Below, piece after piece: positions 47,383 through 60,980 of a stretch of 64,000 nucleotides of DNA. The notes below the pieces were generated by a model. It saw only the letters and a list, made by a program, of their open reading frames with translations, did not search any database and had not been told where the DNA came from. Source of the DNA: an uncultured Dehalococcoidaceae bacterium. GTDB taxonomy: Bacteria > Chloroflexota > Dehalococcoidia > UBA2979. The DNA is taken from positions 11,696 through 75,695 of the forward strand of contig CAYPYF010000003.1 in the NCBI GenBank assembly GCA_964414675.1, in the 5' to 3' direction. Each line of letters opens with the position of its first letter. The first letter of the stretch is position 1. The position numbers and the translations under genes were made by a program.

Positions 47383-48876
47383 CTACGCGAGCCAGGCGCG
47401 CAGCCGCTCGACCGAGCCCGGGTGGCGCACGAGCGCCTGGTGCGAGACCGCGTCCGCGGGCTGGAAGACGTGGCGGTCCTGGATCGGGAAGTTCTTGCTG
47501 CCCTCGACCTCGTACACGCTGGCGGTGGGTACCATCAGGTCGTTCTTTCCACGCAGGATCAGGTCCTGGAGCGTGTCCGCGGCGTACGAGGCAAGTCCAC
47601 TGTCGGGCGCCGGCTCGAAGTCCGCGGCCAGCGCCCGATACGTCGCCTCGGCCTTCGGCGCGCCGTTCAGCGCCTTGAGGAACGCGCTGTCGGGCGCCAT
47701 CGCGGTCAGGCCCGGGAGGCCGCCTGCCGCGCCGACCGCGAGTTGCTTCACCACCGTGATCACCGTAGCCAGCACGTCCGACGCGCCCGCGTCCGGGAAC
47801 AGGTTGGCGATCGTCGTCGCCGTGTCGATGAGGTCCCCGAGGTGCTTCGGGTCAGCGAGGCGCGTGCCCGCATTCGGCGTGCCGAGGAACACGACGCGGT
47901 TCACGCGTACGCTCCCCGCCCCATCACTGCCGCCCGCGACGCCCTCGATCGTCGGCGGCTGCTCCGCCAGTACACGCGCCACCAGTCCCCCTCGAGAGTG
48001 CGCAATGACATCGAGGTCGAGCGTGACGCCGGCCGGTGCCTGCCGGAGCAACCACTCTGCATTCTCGCTCGGGTCCGCGGAGAGCGTCGGGTGGTCGAGC
48101 GCGATCACGCGACCCTCGTACCGTTCGTGGAGCCACTGGACGAAGTCCGGCGGGAGCGCACCGAACGCCGAGTGCGTCCGGCCGAGCGGCCCGTGGATCA
48201 GAAGCAGCGCGCGTCCCGCCGCGAGGCCTGCCCACGCCCCTGCCTCGATCGGTGTGACCTCGGACGAGGTGTAGTCGTCGGGCGTGAAGGTGCGCAGGCG
48301 GTACGGGCGCTTCGAGGCCTCCCAGCGGGACGCCAGCGCGTCACCCACCCGTCCCGCGATCGGATCGAGCCGCGGAAACACCAGCACCTTCAACACCCGG
48401 ATCGCGGCGGCGCCGAGGAGTCCCCGCGTCTCCGCCGGCCCCGCTGGAGGCGGGACATGGCGCGGCACCAGGTAGGTGCGCGACGCCCCGCCCCGTGTGG
48501 CCTCACCCGGTGCGCCAGCAGCCGCGATGCTCCACGATGCGACTCCCGACTCATCGACGGCGAGCAGCACTTGCTCCCAGTCAGGCCCGGGATCCGGGAC
48601 GGTGATCTCGATGGCGGGCTGTCCGAGGGCGGTGCTCCGCGTCACCCCGGCCCCGACCGGCACCTCGCGCGCCCCGACGATCTCGATCGTCTCCTGCGTC
48701 TGCATCGACTCGCCGGCGAGCACCGACTCGAGGACATCGCTCTCGCTGCTGGTGGAGCGCGTCCCGCCCGGACCGGCAGCACGCATCGTCACGCTTCCGG
48801 CCAGGCCCGGCGTGCGCAGGGTGGTACGTCCGATCTGCAGCGGCGTCCCGTTCGAGATCAGGTCAGGCATCGTCAA
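47383..48876 (-). CDS. PGAP1-like/DUF676 alpha/beta hydrolase (putative lipase/esterase) with roughly 200-aa N-terminal extension of unknown function
   Basis: Nucleophile elbow AHSRGGLVARV resembles the GHSMGG motif of PGAP1-like lipases. No signal peptide. It overlaps the upstream CHAT gene by 14 nt. Confidence 0.55.
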   Translation of the reverse strand: MTMPDLISNGTPLQIGRTTLRTPGLAGSVTMRAAGPGGTRSTSSESDVLESVLAGESMQTQETIEIVGAREVPVGAGVTRSTALGQPAIEITVPDPGPDWEQVLLAVDESGVASWSIAAAGAPGEATRGGASRTYLVPRHVPPPAGPAETRGLLGAAAIRVLKVLVFPRLDPIAGRVGDALASRWEASKRPYRLRTFTPDDYTSSEVTPIEAGAWAGLAAGRALLLIHGPLGRTHSAFGALPPDFVQWLHERYEGRVIALDHPTLSADPSENAEWLLRQAPAGVTLDLDVIAHSRGGLVARVLAEQPPTIEGVAGGSDGAGSVRVNRVVFLGTPNAGTRLADPKHLGDLIDTATTIANLFPDAGASDVLATVITVVKQLAVGAAGGLPGLTAMAPDSAFLKALNGAPKAEATYRALAADFEPAPDSGLASYAADTLQDLILRGKNDLMVPTASVYEVEGSKNFPIQDRHVFQPADAVSHQALVRHPGSVERLRAWLA

Positions 48877-51538
48877 TCCCTCCGTTCCTCTTCAGGCGCA
48901 AGGATGGGTGTCCATAGAAGAGGTACGCGAGGCTCGTCGCTGAGACGACATCCACGCCGTCCCCGAATGCCCCACGTTCACGCCTGAGGATCTCGGCAGG
49001 CGGGACGCCGGCGAAGCTCTGCTCGTAGAACCGCAGCGCGATCTCGTGGGCGACCGTGTCCTTGATCGACCACAGCGGGGCCAGCACGCCGGCCGCGCCC
49101 GAGAACAGGAACGCCTCGGCCATGCCCGCATAGTCGCCCAGGATGCGCTGGGCGCTGCCCACCTGGCAGGCGTTCAGGAACACGAACGGGGCTCGGGTGA
49201 ACGTGTGGCCGCGGATCTGCAGCGGATCGATCGTCTGCCCATCGGCGAGCACGAGGCCATGGAGCGTCGAGTTCGGGTCGTAGATCCCGTGCATCGCGAA
49301 GTGCAGCAGCTCCGCCGCCGGCTCACCGCCGAGGCAGGACAGCACGTCCGTCGCCAGTGCGTTGACCGCGACCGCGCCGTATCGCTCCTGGAGCGCCTCC
49401 GCCTCCGCCTCGGCCTCCAGAAGAGGGCTCCAGCCCGGCAGCGCGTACTGACCGCTGATCACCGCGATCGACGAGATCACCACCTCCGCCGGCGGCGGCA
49501 GCTTCGGACGGCGCGTACCCAGCACCCAGCGTCCCACGCACGTTTGCGCGCCGAGGAAGGGCGGCGCTTGCGGGTCGAGCCTGGGCTCCACGGTGGCGAG
49601 CTCCCACGGGACGTACGGCTCCTCCGACAGCAGGAAGATCGTCGGTGCGCGCCCTTCCGCACGGGCGTGGGCCGCGACCGAATCGAGCATCGACCAGAAC
49701 TGCGGTGGCAGTTGCTCGGCGACGGTGTGTCCAACCCCGAGGAGGTACGAGGCGAGGCCCGGCGTACCCTCGCGCGAGCCGACGCCGTCGACGAGCTGAC
49801 GCGCGAACTGGCCCGGCGCATCGCCGATGTCCGTCACCTCCAGCGCCCCGGGCGGCAGCGCCACATGCGGCGAGGTCATCGTCCAGCGGAGGCGGCCCCG
49901 CGACTCCTCGTCCTCCTCGATGACGACGGTCAGGTCCGCCACCGTGCGCTGCTGCGGGATCGCCACCATGCCGCGCTCGCCCTGCGCGGGTTCGTCCGCG
50001 GCGTCAAGGTCCGCCTCGGTCGCGACGGTCGTCACGTACCGCTTCGCGTAGCCGATCACAGCCCCCTCGAGGACGAAGAGCGCGCGGATGCTGCGGACAT
50101 CCGGGCCTTCGCCACGCAGCGCCAGCGGCACCAGCCGCACGTCCACCGTCGGGAAGCGCTGCCCCTCCGAGATCGTCAGGGAGCGGCGGAGTGCTGCTCC
50201 ATCGCTGACGACGAAGCCCGGCGTGTCCAGCTCGACGAGGAGTTCGTACGACTCGACGGCCGGCGAAGGCAGCTCAAACGCCTCGCCGGTCACGCCCGTG
50301 ACCTGCTCGGGTGACAGCCCGACCTCGAGTGTGAACTCTCGTCCCACGACGACCACCGGCGGGCAGTCCAGTAGCCCGTGCGCGCTGTACGTCGCCTCGC
50401 GTGACTCGCCCATGCCCGCGCTGGCGCCGGGCATGGGCGCGAGGGATGGCGTCGCACCGTTCGGCGTTACGGTTCCCACCGAGGTGGGGACGCCTGGCGT
50501 CGTCGTCGTCGGGGCTGGCGCTGGGGTGGAGACTGGCGCTGGCTGCGGTGCCGGCACGGGAGCAGACGGCGGCGTCGAGGATGGCGGGAGGGCGGTCGGT
50601 GCCGGGGCCTCGGGCGCATTGGCCCCACCACCATTCGGCGATGCCTCATCCCGGATGTCCTCGAGCCCGGGAGCCGATCCATGCCCGGCGGTCCGCCTCC
50701 GTCCGAGGAGTCCCGCGCCGGCGTTCACCACCGCGCCGATGCCCACGGGCGGAGTGCTCCAGCGCGCCCACGAGTTCCATGTGAGCGGCTCCCAGCCGAA
50801 CTGCTGGGCCAACACGCACCCGGAGAGCCCCACCATCAGGCCGCACAGCACCGCCATCATGATCCCGAACACCAGCCCGCGGCCAGCGTTCAGCACGCGC
50901 AACGCGATGAACAGCATGCCGGCGATGCCGGCGACCCCCACGAGCGCCGCGATCGCCCCGACTGGCGTCGTCAGTGGGTGAGCGCCGCCGACCTTCACCC
51001 ACCCGCTGATCGGCTCGCAGTCACCTGCGCTCACGACCACCCGGTACAGCCCGATGACCTGGAGGTGATCCCCGACGCGGATCGGCGGCTCGGCCACCCA
51101 TCGCCCATCCCGCGCCTCGAAGGACACGACATCCGTCGAGATCGGCCCGACAGACACGGTGACGGTCCCCGGAACCTTGGACGTACGGCCCACGCCCTGG
51201 ATCTCGAAGGCGACGGCCAGGCTGTCGTCCGCACGGATCGGGAGCGCGTTGTCGTAGTCCCCGAACGTATCGAGGGGGACGCCATCGATCGAGGCCTGGC
51301 ATTGCCACGGCGCACCCTGGGCGACCGCCTCGTGCGGGGCGGGAAGGGCCAGGGAGGCGAGGACCGCGCCAGCCAGTACGAAGGCCAGGGCGACGACCGG
51401 GGTGAGGCGGCGCACCACTCCGAGCACCGCGTCGGGCGCCCGGTGAGGCACAGGCGACGCAGGCGGCACTAGCCAGCGCATCAGTCGCTCCTCAGCGGGG
51501 CGCCCAGCGGCCGATCTGCCACGGCGGGGCGTACGCAT
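48863..51538 (-). CDS. Membrane-anchored CHAT-domain (caspase-like) protease: signal peptide, about 130-aa extracytoplasmic domain, two TM helices, Pro/Thr-rich linker, middle domain, C-terminal CHAT
   Basis: C-terminal LHFAMHG...FVFLNACQVGS carries the CHAT His/Cys dyad. N-terminal hydrophobic segments and a PAPTALPPSSTPPSAPVPAPQPAP linker are present. A possible alternative start is at 51481. Confidence 0.65.
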   Translation of the reverse strand: MRTPRRGRSAAGRPAEERLMRWLVPPASPVPHRAPDAVLGVVRRLTPVVALAFVLAGAVLASLALPAPHEAVAQGAPWQCQASIDGVPLDTFGDYDNALPIRADDSLAVAFEIQGVGRTSKVPGTVTVSVGPISTDVVSFEARDGRWVAEPPIRVGDHLQVIGLYRVVVSAGDCEPISGWVKVGGAHPLTTPVGAIAALVGVAGIAGMLFIALRVLNAGRGLVFGIMMAVLCGLMVGLSGCVLAQQFGWEPLTWNSWARWSTPPVGIGAVVNAGAGLLGRRRTAGHGSAPGLEDIRDEASPNGGGANAPEAPAPTALPPSSTPPSAPVPAPQPAPVSTPAPAPTTTTPGVPTSVGTVTPNGATPSLAPMPGASAGMGESREATYSAHGLLDCPPVVVVGREFTLEVGLSPEQVTGVTGEAFELPSPAVESYELLVELDTPGFVVSDGAALRRSLTISEGQRFPTVDVRLVPLALRGEGPDVRSIRALFVLEGAVIGYAKRYVTTVATEADLDAADEPAQGERGMVAIPQQRTVADLTVVIEEDEESRGRLRWTMTSPHVALPPGALEVTDIGDAPGQFARQLVDGVGSREGTPGLASYLLGVGHTVAEQLPPQFWSMLDSVAAHARAEGRAPTIFLLSEEPYVPWELATVEPRLDPQAPPFLGAQTCVGRWVLGTRRPKLPPPAEVVISSIAVISGQYALPGWSPLLEAEAEAEALQERYGAVAVNALATDVLSCLGGEPAAELLHFAMHGIYDPNSTLHGLVLADGQTIDPLQIRGHTFTRAPFVFLNACQVGSAQRILGDYAGMAEAFLFSGAAGVLAPLWSIKDTVAHEIALRFYEQSFAGVPPAEILRRERGAFGDGVDVVSATSLAYLFYGHPSLRLKRNGGIDDA

Positions 51539-51539
51539 G

Positions 51540-52493
51540 TCAGCGGGGGATCACCAGGATCTGGCCCACCCGGATCACATTGATGTCCACGATCTGGTTC
51601 GCTGCCGCGATTGCCGCGACGGTGACGCCGAATCGCACCGCGATGGACCCGAGGGTGTCGCGCGGGCGCACCTCGTAGTGCTGTCCGGGCACGGTGAGTA
51701 CCTGGCCGGTCTCGATGAGGTCCGGGTTCGCGTCCACCAGTGCCGGGAGCGCGACGCCCAGGCGCTGCGCGACCTCCACCAGCCGGTCGCCTGCCTGTAC
51801 GGTGTACTGGCTGATCGAGGTCGCAGGCGCCTCCACCTCCCGCGTTCCGATCGTGGTCGCAGTGACCGTGGCGCGGTCAATCGTCGAACTGCGTTCGCCC
51901 TCGACCCCGGCGAGCACGAACGATGCGGCGACGGTCCCCTTTTCGACGCGATCCCCCCGGACGGCGAGCGCCGTGGAGCCGAAGCCCTCCAGGTGGAGGT
52001 GGGAGTGGCAGGCGCAGCTGGAGTGATACTCGTGTCGCCGAGGATCCCCGGCCCCGTGCTGCTGGCCGCATCGCCCCGTGGGCCAGTGCTGGGGCTCCGC
52101 CGGGCCGAGCGCCCCGATCTGCACGCGCCCGGCTCCCAGCACGGATCCTGGCCCCACCAGGACGGGGTCGAGGTGGCCGTAGAGGATGCGCAGGCCGGTC
52201 TCGATCCAGCGGTCCGAGCCCTCGCGGCGCTGCAATGTCAACTGCACCACCAGTCCGCCTTCCTCGATCCGCCCGCTCCGGCAGGCCGGACGTACTGACT
52301 CGACGACCGCGCGCACCGGCGGGCCGTCGGTGCGCGCCTCGAAGAACACCGGTGTACCCCGGCTGTCCGCGAGCACGTCCATGTCGCACGACCGGTTGCC
52401 GCCGTAGGGACGGTGGTGCCCATGCGAGGACGAGGTCGTCACTACCGCCGGGATGTCGAAGGGAGAAAGGATCGAGAGTGTCGGCATGTTCAA
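51540..52493 (-). CDS. M23 (LytM-type) metallopeptidase with two C-terminal LysM domains; no obvious signal peptide
   Basis: YGHL...HLHLEG M23 motifs. Two LysM repeats (YTVQAGDRLVEVAQRLGV and YEVRPRDTLGSIAVRFGV). Confidence 0.7.
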   Translation of the reverse strand: MNMPTLSILSPFDIPAVVTTSSSHGHHRPYGGNRSCDMDVLADSRGTPVFFEARTDGPPVRAVVESVRPACRSGRIEEGGLVVQLTLQRREGSDRWIETGLRILYGHLDPVLVGPGSVLGAGRVQIGALGPAEPQHWPTGRCGQQHGAGDPRRHEYHSSCACHSHLHLEGFGSTALAVRGDRVEKGTVAASFVLAGVEGERSSTIDRATVTATTIGTREVEAPATSISQYTVQAGDRLVEVAQRLGVALPALVDANPDLIETGQVLTVPGQHYEVRPRDTLGSIAVRFGVTVAAIAAANQIVDINVIRVGQILVIPR

Positions 52494-52601
52494 CCCCTAT
52501 CGGTGCTGTGGATCGGGCTTGCGGGTGCGCGCGGTTCCGTTCAGCGCACAGGCCGCGCCCGGTCGCCTAGACTCGCCCCGGGCGGCGCGAGACGAGGCAA
52601 C

Positions 52602-53000
52602 ATGACCGAGACTCCGGCCGTGACTCGGCCGCCGAGGCTGTCCGAGGCGACGATTCAGTCGCTGCTCACGTACGTCGACGAGGAGTCCCTGCGCACCACG
52701 AGGCCTCGCACGTCGGCGCCATGGACCTGGGCGCCTCGGACGCTGCGCGTCGGGGCCGTCACCCTGGGCCGCGATATCTGCTTTCGCCCCGGCGCGTTCC
52801 GCGAAGCGGACGTGCGAGGCCTCGCGCTGATCGCGCACGAGTGCACGCATGTCCGGCAGTACCGCGAACTCGGCGCGGCGCGATTCCTGCTCCGCTATCT
52901 CTGGGGGGCGATCCGCGTGCGTTTCGTTCATGATCTCCATCCGCTCGAACTCGAACCGCAGGCGGTGCAGGTCCGTGCCCGCACCAGCCTCACCCTCTGA
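52602..53000 (+). CDS. DUF4157-like zincin-type putative metallopeptidase domain protein
   Basis: IAHECTHVRQY matches the HExxHxxQ signature of DUF4157. Divergently transcribed from the CHAT operon. Confidence 0.5.
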   Translation: MTETPAVTRPPRLSEATIQSLLTYVDEESLRTTRPRTSAPWTWAPRTLRVGAVTLGRDICFRPGAFREADVRGLALIAHECTHVRQYRELGAARFLLRYLWGAIRVRFVHDLHPLELEPQAVQVRARTSLTL

Positions 53001-58924: not shown

Positions 58925-59352
58925 TCCGCTGGGCCGCGTTGCTGCTGTTCTACGGCTACGTGCTGCTGCTGATCGTCGCCGGCGCATGGGGTCTGCTGTT
59001 CGGCGATGTTGACCAGTGGTGGCTCCTCGGGATGGACCTCAGCCTCGTGGAGGACGAGCAGGTCCAGGCGAACGTCCTCACGCAATACCGCTTCCTGAGG
59101 GCTATCGAGCTCGGCTTCGGACTCTGCGCGTTTCGATACCGCCACGAGGTCTTCGAGGCCGTGGGCTTCTACCGGCTGTTCCTGCCGGTCATGATCTTCG
59201 GCGTCGTCGCCCGCCTGGTCTCCATCCTCGTCGATGGGTGGCCGCATCCGATCTTCCTCGCGTTCATGGGGCTCGAGGCGGCAGGCGTCGTCGCGATCTA
59301 CGCAGCGACCGCGCCCCAGCGCGAACTCCACGCCCAGGGCCAGCCCGCGTGA
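58921..59352 (+). CDS. Small integral membrane protein
   Basis: Hydrophobic profile with ATGA overlap to the previous gene. Confidence 0.5.
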   Translation: MIRWAALLLFYGYVLLLIVAGAWGLLFGDVDQWWLLGMDLSLVEDEQVQANVLTQYRFLRAIELGFGLCAFRYRHEVFEAVGFYRLFLPVMIFGVVARLVSILVDGWPHPIFLAFMGLEAAGVVAIYAATAPQRELHAQGQPA

Positions 59353-60980
59353 CTGCCCTCGGCGCGCACCGCCCGGCGCTGACGGCGCCCCCCGCCGAGG
59401 CGACACCGTCGATCGACGCGACGCCGAACCGCGCGCTCATCCTCGCGGGGGGTGGGATGCGTGTCGCCTATCAGGCGGGTGTCCTCCGCGCGGTCGAGGA
59501 GGCGGGCATCACCTTCCACCACTTCGACGGCACCTCGGGCGGCATCATCAACCTCGGGATGCTGTTCTCCGGCGTTGCGCCGGAGGAGATGTGCCGCCGC
59601 TGGCGCTCCCTGAACGTTCGGAAGTTCGTCTCCCTGCCCCCCGCACGGAGGTTCTTGCGCGCCACTCGCATGGCCGCCGTCGGCGACGCCCGCGGCATCG
59701 TCCAGCAGGTGTTCCCTCACCTCGGCATCGACCCGTCGAGGATCAATGCGGCCGCCGGCGGAACGGCCACGTTCAACGTCTGCAACTTCACCGACAAGAC
59801 CATCGAGGCCATCCCGCACGATCGGGTGACGCGTGACCTCCTCGTCGCCGGGATATCGCTCCCCGTGTTGATGCCCGCGGTGCGCGTCGGGGACGTTACG
59901 TACACCGATGCGGTGTGGATCAAGGACGCCAACCTCCTGGAGGCCGTCCGTCGTGGCGCCGAGGAGCTCTGGCTGGTCTGGTGCATCGGCAACACACCGG
60001 CGTTCCGGGACGGCGCGCTCAACCAGTACGTGCACATGATCGAGATGAGCGCGAACGGCTCGCTGTTCGACGAGTTCGCGCAGATCCAGGTCCTGAACGA
60101 AGAGATCGAGGCCGGCCGGTCACGCTACGGTCAGAGGCGCCCGGTCCGGCTCCACGTCATCAAGCCGGCCCTCCCGCTGCCGCTCGACCCGGATCTCTAC
60201 CTCGGCCACATCGACAACGCGACGCTGATCGACATGGGGTACCGGGACGCCTCGACGTACCTGCGCACCCGATCAGAAGCAGGGGTGCGATTCACCCCGG
60301 AGGCCACGAAGATGACCGAACCGCAGCTCGGGATCACGTTCCGCGAGACCATGTCCGGCCCGTTCGCCCTCGGCGAGACCGACCCGCGCGCCGGCGCCGA
60401 AGCAGGCAAGCGCGCCGGCACCAACCTCGCGATGCATGCCGCTGTCGAGATCGACTCGATACGCGCGTTCGTCGACGACCCCGAGCACCCCGGCAGCCTC
60501 GCCGGCCGCATCGACTTCACCCCCTGGGGCGAGGCCATCCCCGCTGCCAGCGGCGTCTTCAACCTGTTCGCCCCCACCGCGCAGCCAGACCTGAAGCACA
60601 TGGTGTACGAGTTGCAGTTCCAACATGCCGGTCAGGCGTACTACCTTGCCGGCCGCAAGGAGGTGAAGAGCGACAGCCACGGCCTTGACCTCTGGTCAGA
60701 CACCACCACCCTGCTGACGACGCTGCACGAGGGTGACGACGCCTCCGGCCCGGTCGTCGGTGCAGGTGTCCTCTCACTCGGCCCGGACGACCTCGCGCGC
60801 CTCATCAAGACCGTGCGCGTCACCGGAGACCCGTCCGCCCTCGACCGCGCGCGCACCATCGCCACGTTTGGCTCGTTCTTCATGGGCGAACTGTGGGATA
60901 CCTACGCCACTCCAATCCTCCAACCGGCCTCGTGGTGGAAGCGCCCGTTCCGATGGCTGCGCGGCCTGGCCCGTCAGTAG
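59349..60980 (+). CDS. Patatin-like phospholipase with roughly 290-aa C-terminal extension
   Basis: Oxyanion GGGMR, nucleophile DGTSGG, catalytic Asp in DGA. GTG start overlaps the previous stop (GTGA). Confidence 0.75.
   Translation: MTALGAHRPALTAPPAEATPSIDATPNRALILAGGGMRVAYQAGVLRAVEEAGITFHHFDGTSGGIINLGMLFSGVAPEEMCRRWRSLNVRKFVSLPPARRFLRATRMAAVGDARGIVQQVFPHLGIDPSRINAAAGGTATFNVCNFTDKTIEAIPHDRVTRDLLVAGISLPVLMPAVRVGDVTYTDAVWIKDANLLEAVRRGAEELWLVWCIGNTPAFRDGALNQYVHMIEMSANGSLFDEFAQIQVLNEEIEAGRSRYGQRRPVRLHVIKPALPLPLDPDLYLGHIDNATLIDMGYRDASTYLRTRSEAGVRFTPEATKMTEPQLGITFRETMSGPFALGETDPRAGAEAGKRAGTNLAMHAAVEIDSIRAFVDDPEHPGSLAGRIDFTPWGEAIPAASGVFNLFAPTAQPDLKHMVYELQFQHAGQAYYLAGRKEVKSDSHGLDLWSDTTTLLTTLHEGDDASGPVVGAGVLSLGPDDLARLIKTVRVTGDPSALDRARTIATFGSFFMGELWDTYATPILQPASWWKRPFRWLRGLARQ

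Follow-up and report, generated by a model that had tools for sequence, protein, structure and literature searches.

A CHAT protease gene overlapping a hydrolase gene

We analyzed a stretch of 64,000 nucleotides (hereafter, the window) from contig CAYPYF010000003.1 of assembly GCA_964414675.1, an uncultured Dehalococcoidaceae bacterium, and within it a pair of genes encoding a CHAT protease and an alpha/beta-hydrolase. They belong to three consecutive gapless open reading frames (ORFs) of the minus strand: an M23-like/LysM gene (51540..52493), the CHAT gene, and the hydrolase gene (Table 1). Most likely, the hydrolase is a cell-death enzyme that a protease activates; such enzymes were first shown by experiment in 2025. 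Its N-terminal part forms a domain of its own that is tied to caspase-fold proteases across many phyla, and it ends at a nearly invariant Arg-Gly pair that could be the site of activation.

Where does the hydrolase begin? A previous reading of the locus, made from the sequence only, had placed a minus-strand ORF at 47383..48876, starting with TTG and overlapping the CHAT gene by 14 nucleotides (nt). The ORF and its strand stand, and the start moves. The junction reads GGAGGG-ATTGACG-ATG-CCTGA, with the Shine-Dalgarno (SD) sequence GGAGGG at a distance of 7 nt from the ATG (48870) but of only 1 nt from the TTG (48876). The homologs have N termini of the type MPDL.../MPE..., and an independent gene call on a public contig gives an identical 495-residue product with an 8-nt overlap. 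Given this SD spacing, the homologous N termini, and the independent call, we take the ATG at 48870 as the start, and therefore the overlap is 8 nt (ATGCCTGA) and not 14. Overlaps of 1 to 8 nt or short gaps are likewise found at loci L001, L005, L029, L035, and L054 of the comparative set described below. The two genes are thus physically coupled in the window, and translational coupling through the 8-nt overlap is plausible.

Table 1. Positions in the window of the protease and hydrolase genes and of their features.
Feature	Position	Strand	Basis
Hydrolase gene, 495 residues	47383..48870	minus	ORF; ATG 48868..48870, stop TAG 47383..47385
CHAT protease gene, 891 residues	48863..51538	minus	ORF, Pfam CHAT
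Coupling junction	48863..48883	minus	SD GGAGGG 48878..48883, ATG 48868..48870, CHAT stop TGA 48863..48865
N-domain, residues 1-140	48451..48870	minus	AlphaFold2 domain model, phmmer homologs
Hinge, residues 141-215	48226..48450	minus	conserved columns, model secondary structure
DUF7379 alpha/beta-hydrolase core, residues 216-495	47386..48225	minus	Pfam, invariant columns, Foldseek
Catalytic Ser292	47995..47997	minus	invariant, AHSRGG motif
Catalytic Asp444	47539..47541	minus	invariant column
Catalytic His477	47440..47442	minus	invariant column
GTR38-S39 loop motif, candidate site	48754..48759	minus	low-confidence loop 38-43
VTR78-S79 loop motif, candidate site	48634..48639	minus	intermediate-confidence loop
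ATR126-G127 loop motif, candidate site	48490..48495	minus	low-confidence segment 117-127
ETR149-G150, best candidate cleavage site, N-domain/hydrolase boundary	48421..48426	minus	low-confidence segment 143-174
CHAT His750	49289..49291	minus	invariant
CHAT Cys791	49166..49168	minus	invariant
CHAT residues 1-300 (signal-anchor-like segment onward)	50639..51538	minus	hydropathy profile

The catalytic core of the hydrolase matches DUF7379 (PF24096) over residues 224-404 and profile positions 1-191, at 179 bits, well over the gathering score of 33 (E value of 1.3e-52). The residues Ser292, Asp444, and His477 are invariant across 31 homologs and keep the Ser-Asp-His order of the alpha/beta-hydrolase triad. 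In structure comparisons with Foldseek the core resembles bacterial family-I lipases, esterases, and MenH (E values down to 1e-7). In the model of the full-length protein, with a predicted local distance difference test (pLDDT) score of 71, the core takes the canonical alpha/beta-hydrolase form and is covered by a helical, hydrophobic lid at about residues 341-403. The previous reading was therefore right in recognizing an alpha/beta-hydrolase with its nucleophile in AHSRGG and a core beginning near residue 230, and right in calling the upstream gene a CHAT protease. Its label of a PGAP1-like enzyme has to be replaced: DUF7379 is the best family, and PGAP1 (PF07819) gave no match at an E value of 0.01 or lower in the Pfam scan of the window hydrolase. 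Some of the homologs show subthreshold Pfam similarity to Palm_thioest, PGAP1, and LCAT. Searches of NCBIfam and PADLOC-DB 2.0 with the hydrolase returned no matches, and a literature search on the name DUF7379 found no papers.

The CHAT domain (PF12770) covers residues 702-856 of the partner protein (70 bits, cutoff 24; E value of 2.3e-19), and its dyad, His750 in HFAMHG and Cys791 in LNACQ, is invariant in 37 homologs. Judging from their intact catalytic residues, both enzymes look active. The hydropathy profile of the protease has hydrophobic segments at residues 45-67, 191-214, and 220-244 and a weaker one at 262-278. The region of about 120 residues between hydrophobic segments is, from this profile, a probable extracytoplasmic domain. 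The membrane region is followed by a linker of about 90 residues rich in Pro, Thr, and Ala, a conserved middle domain, and the C-terminal CHAT domain. This N-terminal membrane region is common only to the Dehalococcoidia loci L001 and L012, and may serve as an envelope sensor. Elsewhere, the CHAT partners carry HEAT, subtilase, kinase, RRM, TCAD7 (in two proteins), or membrane regions, or N termini in which no domain was identified; such variability is typical of conflict systems. In PADLOC-DB 2.0 the CHAT protein gives only a weak match, to BovA (E value of 0.0026).

The N-terminal part of the hydrolase is a conserved domain

The region ahead of the core had been described as a low-complexity extension without family resemblance. 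Our comparisons overturn this description. A homology search retrieved 438 relatives of the hydrolase, from Chloroflexota, Bacillota, Acidobacteriota, Solirubrobacterales, and other groups, and among the best 120 nearly all are 486-517 residues long and cover 98-100% of the query. The N-terminal 215 residues or so align end to end with homologs from multiple phyla at 45-62% identity, in blocks such as GNPVxVGxxTLRTPGLxG, TRSTxxGEPAIE, WGQVVLxxDESGVxTWNF, TRGxxTRTYVIxR, TRGLxGAxGKKxLKVLVFPL, and RWExxKRPYRxRxF. AlphaFold2, run on residues 1-152 with a 33-sequence alignment, returns a compact alpha+beta domain with a pLDDT score of 82 and a predicted template modeling score of 0.76. The model consists of eight strands (residues 11-13, 16-19, 23-30, 61-69, 85-92, 102-105, 111-114, and 130-136) and one helix (42-53). 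Its fold has no significant match among the structures of the PDB or the viral structures of BFVD. At the level of sequence, the domain has no profile match in the PDB, and no Pfam or NCBIfam model covers the region.

Is this N-domain used elsewhere? When 1.84 billion cluster representatives were searched by phmmer with residues 1-215 as the query, 360 proteins matched, 236 of them at an E value of 1e-10 or lower. The 150 of these proteins that were listed are, by their lengths, standalone hydrolases (about 490-515 residues), modules fused to proteases, or gene fragments. Among ten long or atypical matches scanned with Pfam, nine carry DUF7379 and the tenth is a fragment stopping after the N-domain. 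A search of a word-indexed database with the N-domain alignment as a profile retrieved 9 short proteins only and was uninformative. The two of these that lie on longer contigs, apparently N-domain-only proteins, are split genes adjoining CHAT. As far as these searches reach, the N-domain is specific to the module that it forms with DUF7379.

Some instances may escape notice because of misannotation. Protein P0308 of Nocardioides immobilis (locus L035, 10001-11494) is publicly annotated as an “esterase/lipase family protein” of 368 residues that starts inside the module, but the DNA encodes an entire N-domain. This start is probably an annotation error, one that hides the N-domain in databases.

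Between the N-domain and the core, the full-length model shows a hinge with a helix-helix-strand arrangement (residues 150-215). It begins with a hydrophobic or amphipathic helix (GLLGAAAIRVLKVLVFP), followed by the RWE...KRPYRLRTF helix-strand leading into the hydrolase. Three of its residues are strongly conserved among 291 distinct modules, which also serve for the arginine motifs below: E184 is present in 291 of them, R193 in 98%, and W183 in 92%. The hinge is still weakly recognizable (E value of 1.6e-4) in a DUF7379-CHAT fusion of Ruegeria.

Conserved arginine motifs in loops of the N-terminal module

The N-terminal module has four TR[GS] motifs in residues 1-152, when a mean of 0.22 is expected from composition-preserving shuffles (P about 1e-5). 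Three of them lie in loops modeled with low confidence, and the loop of R78 is of intermediate confidence. In the notation of protease sites, their arginines would occupy the P1 position, and their conservation is uneven. Arginine is found at R38 in 86% of the modules, with A, G, or S at P1' and mostly M, T, or L at P2. At R78 it is present in 85% (P1' being S, G, or A, and P2 being T or S in 64%) and at R126 in 82%, with G at P1' in 80%. R149 is nearly invariant (98.6%, 287/291), and is followed by G in 90% (261/291) and by S in 8% of the modules. At these last three sites P2 is T or S in about 60-66%. The pair R149-G150 is kept in 251 of 254 standalone modules and in 38 of 39 modules fused to a Peptidase_C14 (C14) caspase. 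In this fused class R38 and R126 are weaker, R126 falling to about 50%, and the linker preceding the N-domain has extra (M/T)R(S/D) motifs.

R149-G150 falls exactly between the N-domain and the hinge, and the most hydrophobic stretch of the whole hydrolase protein, GLLGAAAIRVLKVLVFPRL, comes directly after it. The fusions of Ruegeria and Burkholderia retain the RG plus hydrophobic-helix element ahead of their DUF7379 core. Furthermore, short natural DUF7379 homologs, such as P0272, begin approximately at the position of G150 and resemble the mature form that cleavage would produce. In a subfamily composed of P0271, P0272, and P0274, a hinge-like helix pair starts near G150, the N-domain is absent, and the proteins end in C-terminal tails of 70-100 residues. 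The regulatory and possibly cleavable part may have shifted to the C terminus in this subfamily.

Association with caspase-fold proteases across genomes

Relatives of the module occur in at least 519 species-level genomes. Most of these belong to uncultured lineages from soil, and the groups represented include Chloroflexota, Acidobacteriota, Gemmatimonadota, Actinomycetota, Planctomycetota, and Rhodothermales. We classified 80 loci from species-representative genomes using tblastn and custom hidden Markov models of CHAT and C14. At 49 loci the layout is that of the window, where the CHAT gene shares the strand of the module and ends just ahead of it; 25 have a C14 caspase in frame or immediately upstream, and 3, truncated upstream, have CHAT or C14 just downstream. 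One locus is ambiguous, and two, L049 and L050 from Acidimicrobiia, have no caspase domain within 10 kb. Hence, a caspase-fold protease adjoins the module or is fused to it at 77 of the 80 loci, and L049 and L050 are the sole exceptions that we found (2 of about 76 informative loci). The module of N-domain and DUF7379 is obligately associated or fused with caspase-fold proteases in essentially all informative loci. At the two exceptions (L049, 8846-11455; L050, 8836-11460), the module is instead preceded, in the same protein, by a region that has hydrophobic segments and a stretch rich in beta structure. We considered whether this extension is homologous to the membrane region of the window CHAT and dropped the idea, as BLASTP gave no demonstrable homology (E value of 0.16).

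The association takes many forms. The in-frame C14 proteins are 1120-1207 residues long and read C14, about 400 residues that sometimes include DUF4384, N-domain, and DUF7379; one such fusion lies at L033 (7937-11434). Besides this C14-module order, we found CHAT-module (P0131), module-CHAT (P0136 and P0222), and module-C14 (P0240) fusions. Many of the C14-fused loci have, directly downstream, a second gene encoding a CHAT or a C14-nSTAND1-WD40 protein. The latter are giant proteins, as at L026 (11468-15616), L052 (11451-16040), L033, L048, and L069. Such rows of two caspase-domain genes are suggestive of an arrangement of initiator and executioner.

The partners also vary together. The pairwise distances between CHAT domains correlate with those between the adjacent hydrolases (Mantel correlation, r = 0.81), a value reached in 0 of 2000 permutations, as if CHAT and hydrolase co-evolve as a cassette.

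More distant relatives show the same partnership without the same architecture. Plasmid-borne DUF7379 cores of Ruegeria pomeroyi and Burkholderia sit inside CHAT fusion proteins, and short DUF7379 proteins (315-395 residues) lacking the N-domain also adjoin CHAT or C14. The Ruegeria protein, WP_051420469.1, is encoded on the megaplasmid of R. pomeroyi DSS-3 (L081, 5365-11262); its 966 residues comprise an N-terminal region of about 210 residues, DUF7379, and CHAT. An SIR2-ABC-ATPase gene follows it and an IS5 transposase adjoins it, a setting that resembles a defense island in a cultured model bacterium. At L084 (2153-7855), a pair of C14 and bacterial gasdermin genes lies immediately beside a pair of short DUF7379 and CHAT genes, so that a single island holds two protease/effector modules.

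A protease-gated hydrolase and the alternatives

How could the protease act on the hydrolase? We propose a protease-gated death-effector cassette made up of the two genes. In it, the hydrolase would be produced in a latent state, with its lipase-like DUF7379 core behind the dedicated N-terminal domain of about 150 residues. The CHAT protease, anchored in the membrane, would be switched on by a signal that its variable N-terminal part presumably senses, and would then cut the N-terminal module after Arg, in its exposed (T/S)-R-(G/S/A) loops. The key cut would be R149|G150, between the N-domain and the hydrolase, and R126|G127, R78|S79, and R38|S39 would be probable further sites. Cleavage may detach or dismantle the N-domain, making the hydrophobic helix (residues 150-168) the new N terminus. 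The freed esterase or lipase would probably attack membrane lipids, killing or arresting the cell, possibly in defense. To the whole of this reading, in which the activated CHAT cuts after Arg, decisively at R149|G150, and frees a lipase-like enzyme so that the cell dies, we give a probability of about 0.55.

The idea that CHAT controls the hydrolase as a pro-effector was already part of the sequence-only reading, and comparison supports it well, because the protease is adjacent or fused, the partners covary (r = 0.81), the N-terminal module has four Arg loops, including the conserved R149-G150, and a caspase/hydrolase pair of Lysobacter provides a precedent (see below). Two of the arguments first given for it, the low complexity of the extension and the overlap of 14 nt, did not survive. 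The same reading had held that a conserved folded domain shared with homologs lacking a neighboring protease would count against it. The domain is indeed conserved and folded, but outside 2 of about 76 informative loci it does not occur in homologs without the protease.

Several points weigh against this interpretation. The conserved arginines of the N-terminal module could instead be structural or ligand binding. The model of the full-length hydrolase is of moderate confidence only, and the topology of the CHAT protein depends on the weak fourth hydrophobic segment. Cleavage after Leu or Met is known from some CHAT proteases, Craspase among them. L049 and L050 keep the N-domain with no caspase-fold domain in their vicinity. 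The pair is surrounded by no defense-island genes in the window, and the hydrolase is absent from the systems of PADLOC-DB 2.0. Finally, the N fragment of the Lysobacter hydrolase is required for its activity (PMC12642450), and therefore the N-domain of the window hydrolase is perhaps not purely inhibitory.

Other explanations were weighed. The N-domain could be a docking or adaptor domain that sits on the protease or on its oligomer, in which case the two enzymes would be co-effectors, or the hydrolase would be switched allosterically by assembly without being cut. Fusions in every order are what one expects of obligate partners, the N-domain is well folded and strongly conserved, unlike a simple linker, and Kaur et al. 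conclude solely that caspase and hydrolase “operate together” (PMC7159879). We consider docking possible but improbable, since it leaves unexplained the four loop motifs of the (T/S)-R-(G/S/A) type and the near invariance of R149-G150 at the boundary, the sole tested caspase/hydrolase pair acts through cleavage (PMC12642450), and short DUF7379 partners of CHAT and C14 do without the N-domain altogether. A different use of the same sites would be the excision of a short internal piece, e.g., residues 127-149, leaving an N fragment that stays bound and is needed for activity. This is how LcHydrolase behaves: its N and C fragments are toxic jointly and not singly, and the middle piece is dispensable (PMC12642450). 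In the window protein R126-G127 and R149-G150 flank a single strand-containing segment of 23 residues, and the N-domain core is strongly conserved, which suggests a role beyond masking. Excision nevertheless seems slightly more doubtful to us than docking, as R126 is kept in 82% of the modules, and in about half of the C14-fused forms, versus about 99% for R149, natural short homologs have no N-domain at all, and the hydrolase core looks complete without it.

The order of action could also be reversed, the hydrolase acting on the protease (by deacylation or activation) or upstream on a shared substrate or lipid signal, with the protease as the terminal effector. Caspase-like proteases can indeed be terminal effectors, as reported for type IV Thoeris (10.1101/2024.10.24.620036), and the weak Pfam similarity of some homologs to Palm_thioest, PGAP1, and LCAT points to thioesterase and deacylase families. 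We find this quite unlikely: such an order has no precedent, the conserved Arg-Gly loops are in the hydrolase and not in a pro-region of the protease, and the Lysobacter experiments point the opposite way (PMC12642450). One may also ask whether the adjacency is coincidental, the gene encoding a lipase or esterase of housekeeping function whose N-terminal domain binds lipids or membranes. The housekeeping genes of the window neighborhood (pst/phoU, GNAT, M20 peptidase, methyltransferase) and a GC content at third codon positions matching that of the neighbors, for both the CHAT and the hydrolase genes, would agree with this. Yet adjacency or fusion at 77 of 80 loci, with two protease families and several gene orders, the 8-nt overlap, and the covariation of CHAT and hydrolase effectively refute it.

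The proposal of a latent, protease-gated hydrolase can be taken one step further, which we do tentatively and with little confidence. The N-domain could be a hitherto undescribed, dedicated caspase-substrate cassette, shredded at several (T/S)-R|G loops to license the lipase. If so, in the C14-fused relatives with a second caspase-STAND-WD40 or CHAT gene downstream, the module would stand last in a bacterial caspase cascade of two tiers, with a sensor/initiator caspase acting first and an executioner caspase-lipase fusion second. The version of the window would be an envelope-sensing death switch, the cascade receiving its input from the extracytoplasmic domain of the membrane-embedded CHAT and not from a cytoplasmic sensor of phage proteins.

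Relation to known systems

The closest precedent is the LcCaspase/LcHydrolase pair of Lysobacter capsici AZ78. In the experiments of Evans et al. (bioRxiv, November 2025), LcCaspase cleaves the hydrolase, of about 33 kDa, after R73 and R117, in conserved R|G motifs, and the N and C fragments are toxic together (PMC12642450). As in the window, the gene of a caspase-fold cysteine protease adjoins that of an alpha/beta-hydrolase with conserved Arg-Gly motifs in its N-terminal part, the proteases have variable sensor domains (versions with STAND/WD40 also adjoin our module), and cell death is the predicted outcome. The likeness between the two hydrolases is drawn from their descriptions. A search with the Ruegeria DUF7379 core for short proteobacterial relatives yielded many DUF7379 proteins of 300-440 residues, none of them named Lysobacter. 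The differences are also clear. LcHydrolase has about 297 residues and two sites, which lie inside the hydrolase fold, whereas the window hydrolase (52 kDa, 495 residues) has four motifs, in a separate domain of about 150 residues plus hinge. The Lysobacter protease is a soluble caspase-like protein, and the window partner a membrane-anchored CHAT.

The pairing itself was noticed earlier. Kaur et al. (eLife, 2020) observed that, in vWA-MoxR/VMAP and GAP1 systems, a gene for an alpha/beta-hydrolase invariably goes with the caspase-superfamily domains (PMC7159879), and membrane lipids were later assumed to be the target of such hydrolases (Kaur et al., 2021; PMC8195603). Together with the Lysobacter cleavage of 2025, this pairing places the window pair within an established logic. 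These systems share with our module the obligate neighborhood of a caspase-superfamily peptidase and an alpha/beta-hydrolase, and TCAD7, which two CHAT partners of the module carry, is a domain of the ternary systems. In contrast, no vWA, MoxR, VMAP, or GTPase genes are near the window pair, and the 2020 study neither predicted cleavage nor described an N-domain of the window type.

Two other protease-effector systems offer partial parallels. The pairs of bacterial gasdermins with caspase-like or CHAT proteases (Johnson et al., 2022) are also two-gene cassettes with variable protease sensors, in which the effector is kept inactive by a cleavable segment, as we propose here. Gasdermins are pore formers with a short C-terminal inhibitory peptide, whereas the window effector is an enzyme whose presumed inhibitory part is N-terminal and folded. 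In Craspase (gRAMP/TPR-CHAT with Csx30), a CHAT protease has its substrate encoded nearby, as we propose for the window, but Csx30 is not an enzyme, and the window pair has no TPR match and no cas genes. We discarded a CRISPR/Craspase context, as TPR and arrays are lacking and the neighbors are unrelated; no CRISPR repeat arrays were found anywhere in the window.

Control of effectors by proteases is increasingly seen to be a main principle in the immunity and death of bacterial cells, with gasdermins, Craspase, MBL, Pepco, EACC1, and hydrolase zymogens as examples. The cassette described here is widespread, and its subfamily is uncharacterized and absent from PADLOC-DB 2.0. What is new with respect to the tested hydrolase zymogen is the separate N-terminal domain, novel in fold, with its four candidate Arg sites. 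Bacterial proteolytic cascades could come to light through the natural fusions of caspase and hydrolase and through the caspase genes that lie in tandem.

Genes around the pair

The immediate neighbors of the pair in the window encode M23/LysM, DUF4157, GNAT, and M20 peptidase proteins, another hydrolase, and a GMC oxidoreductase. The M23/LysM gene, which ends 1 nt ahead of the CHAT start codon, encodes a protein of 317 residues with two C-terminal LysM domains, an M23-like HxxxD/HxH pattern, and no obvious signal peptide. Divergently from the LysM-CHAT-hydrolase operon lies a small zincin-like protein gene of the DUF4157/eCIS_core type (HECTH), at 52599..53000 on the plus strand, with an ORF listed from 52413. 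We considered these two genes as possible parts of the system and rejected them, since tblastn found neither at any of the 80 loci. A further gene, on the plus strand (59016..60980) and about 10 kb away from the cassette, encodes a patatin-like phospholipase of 654 residues with long flanking regions.

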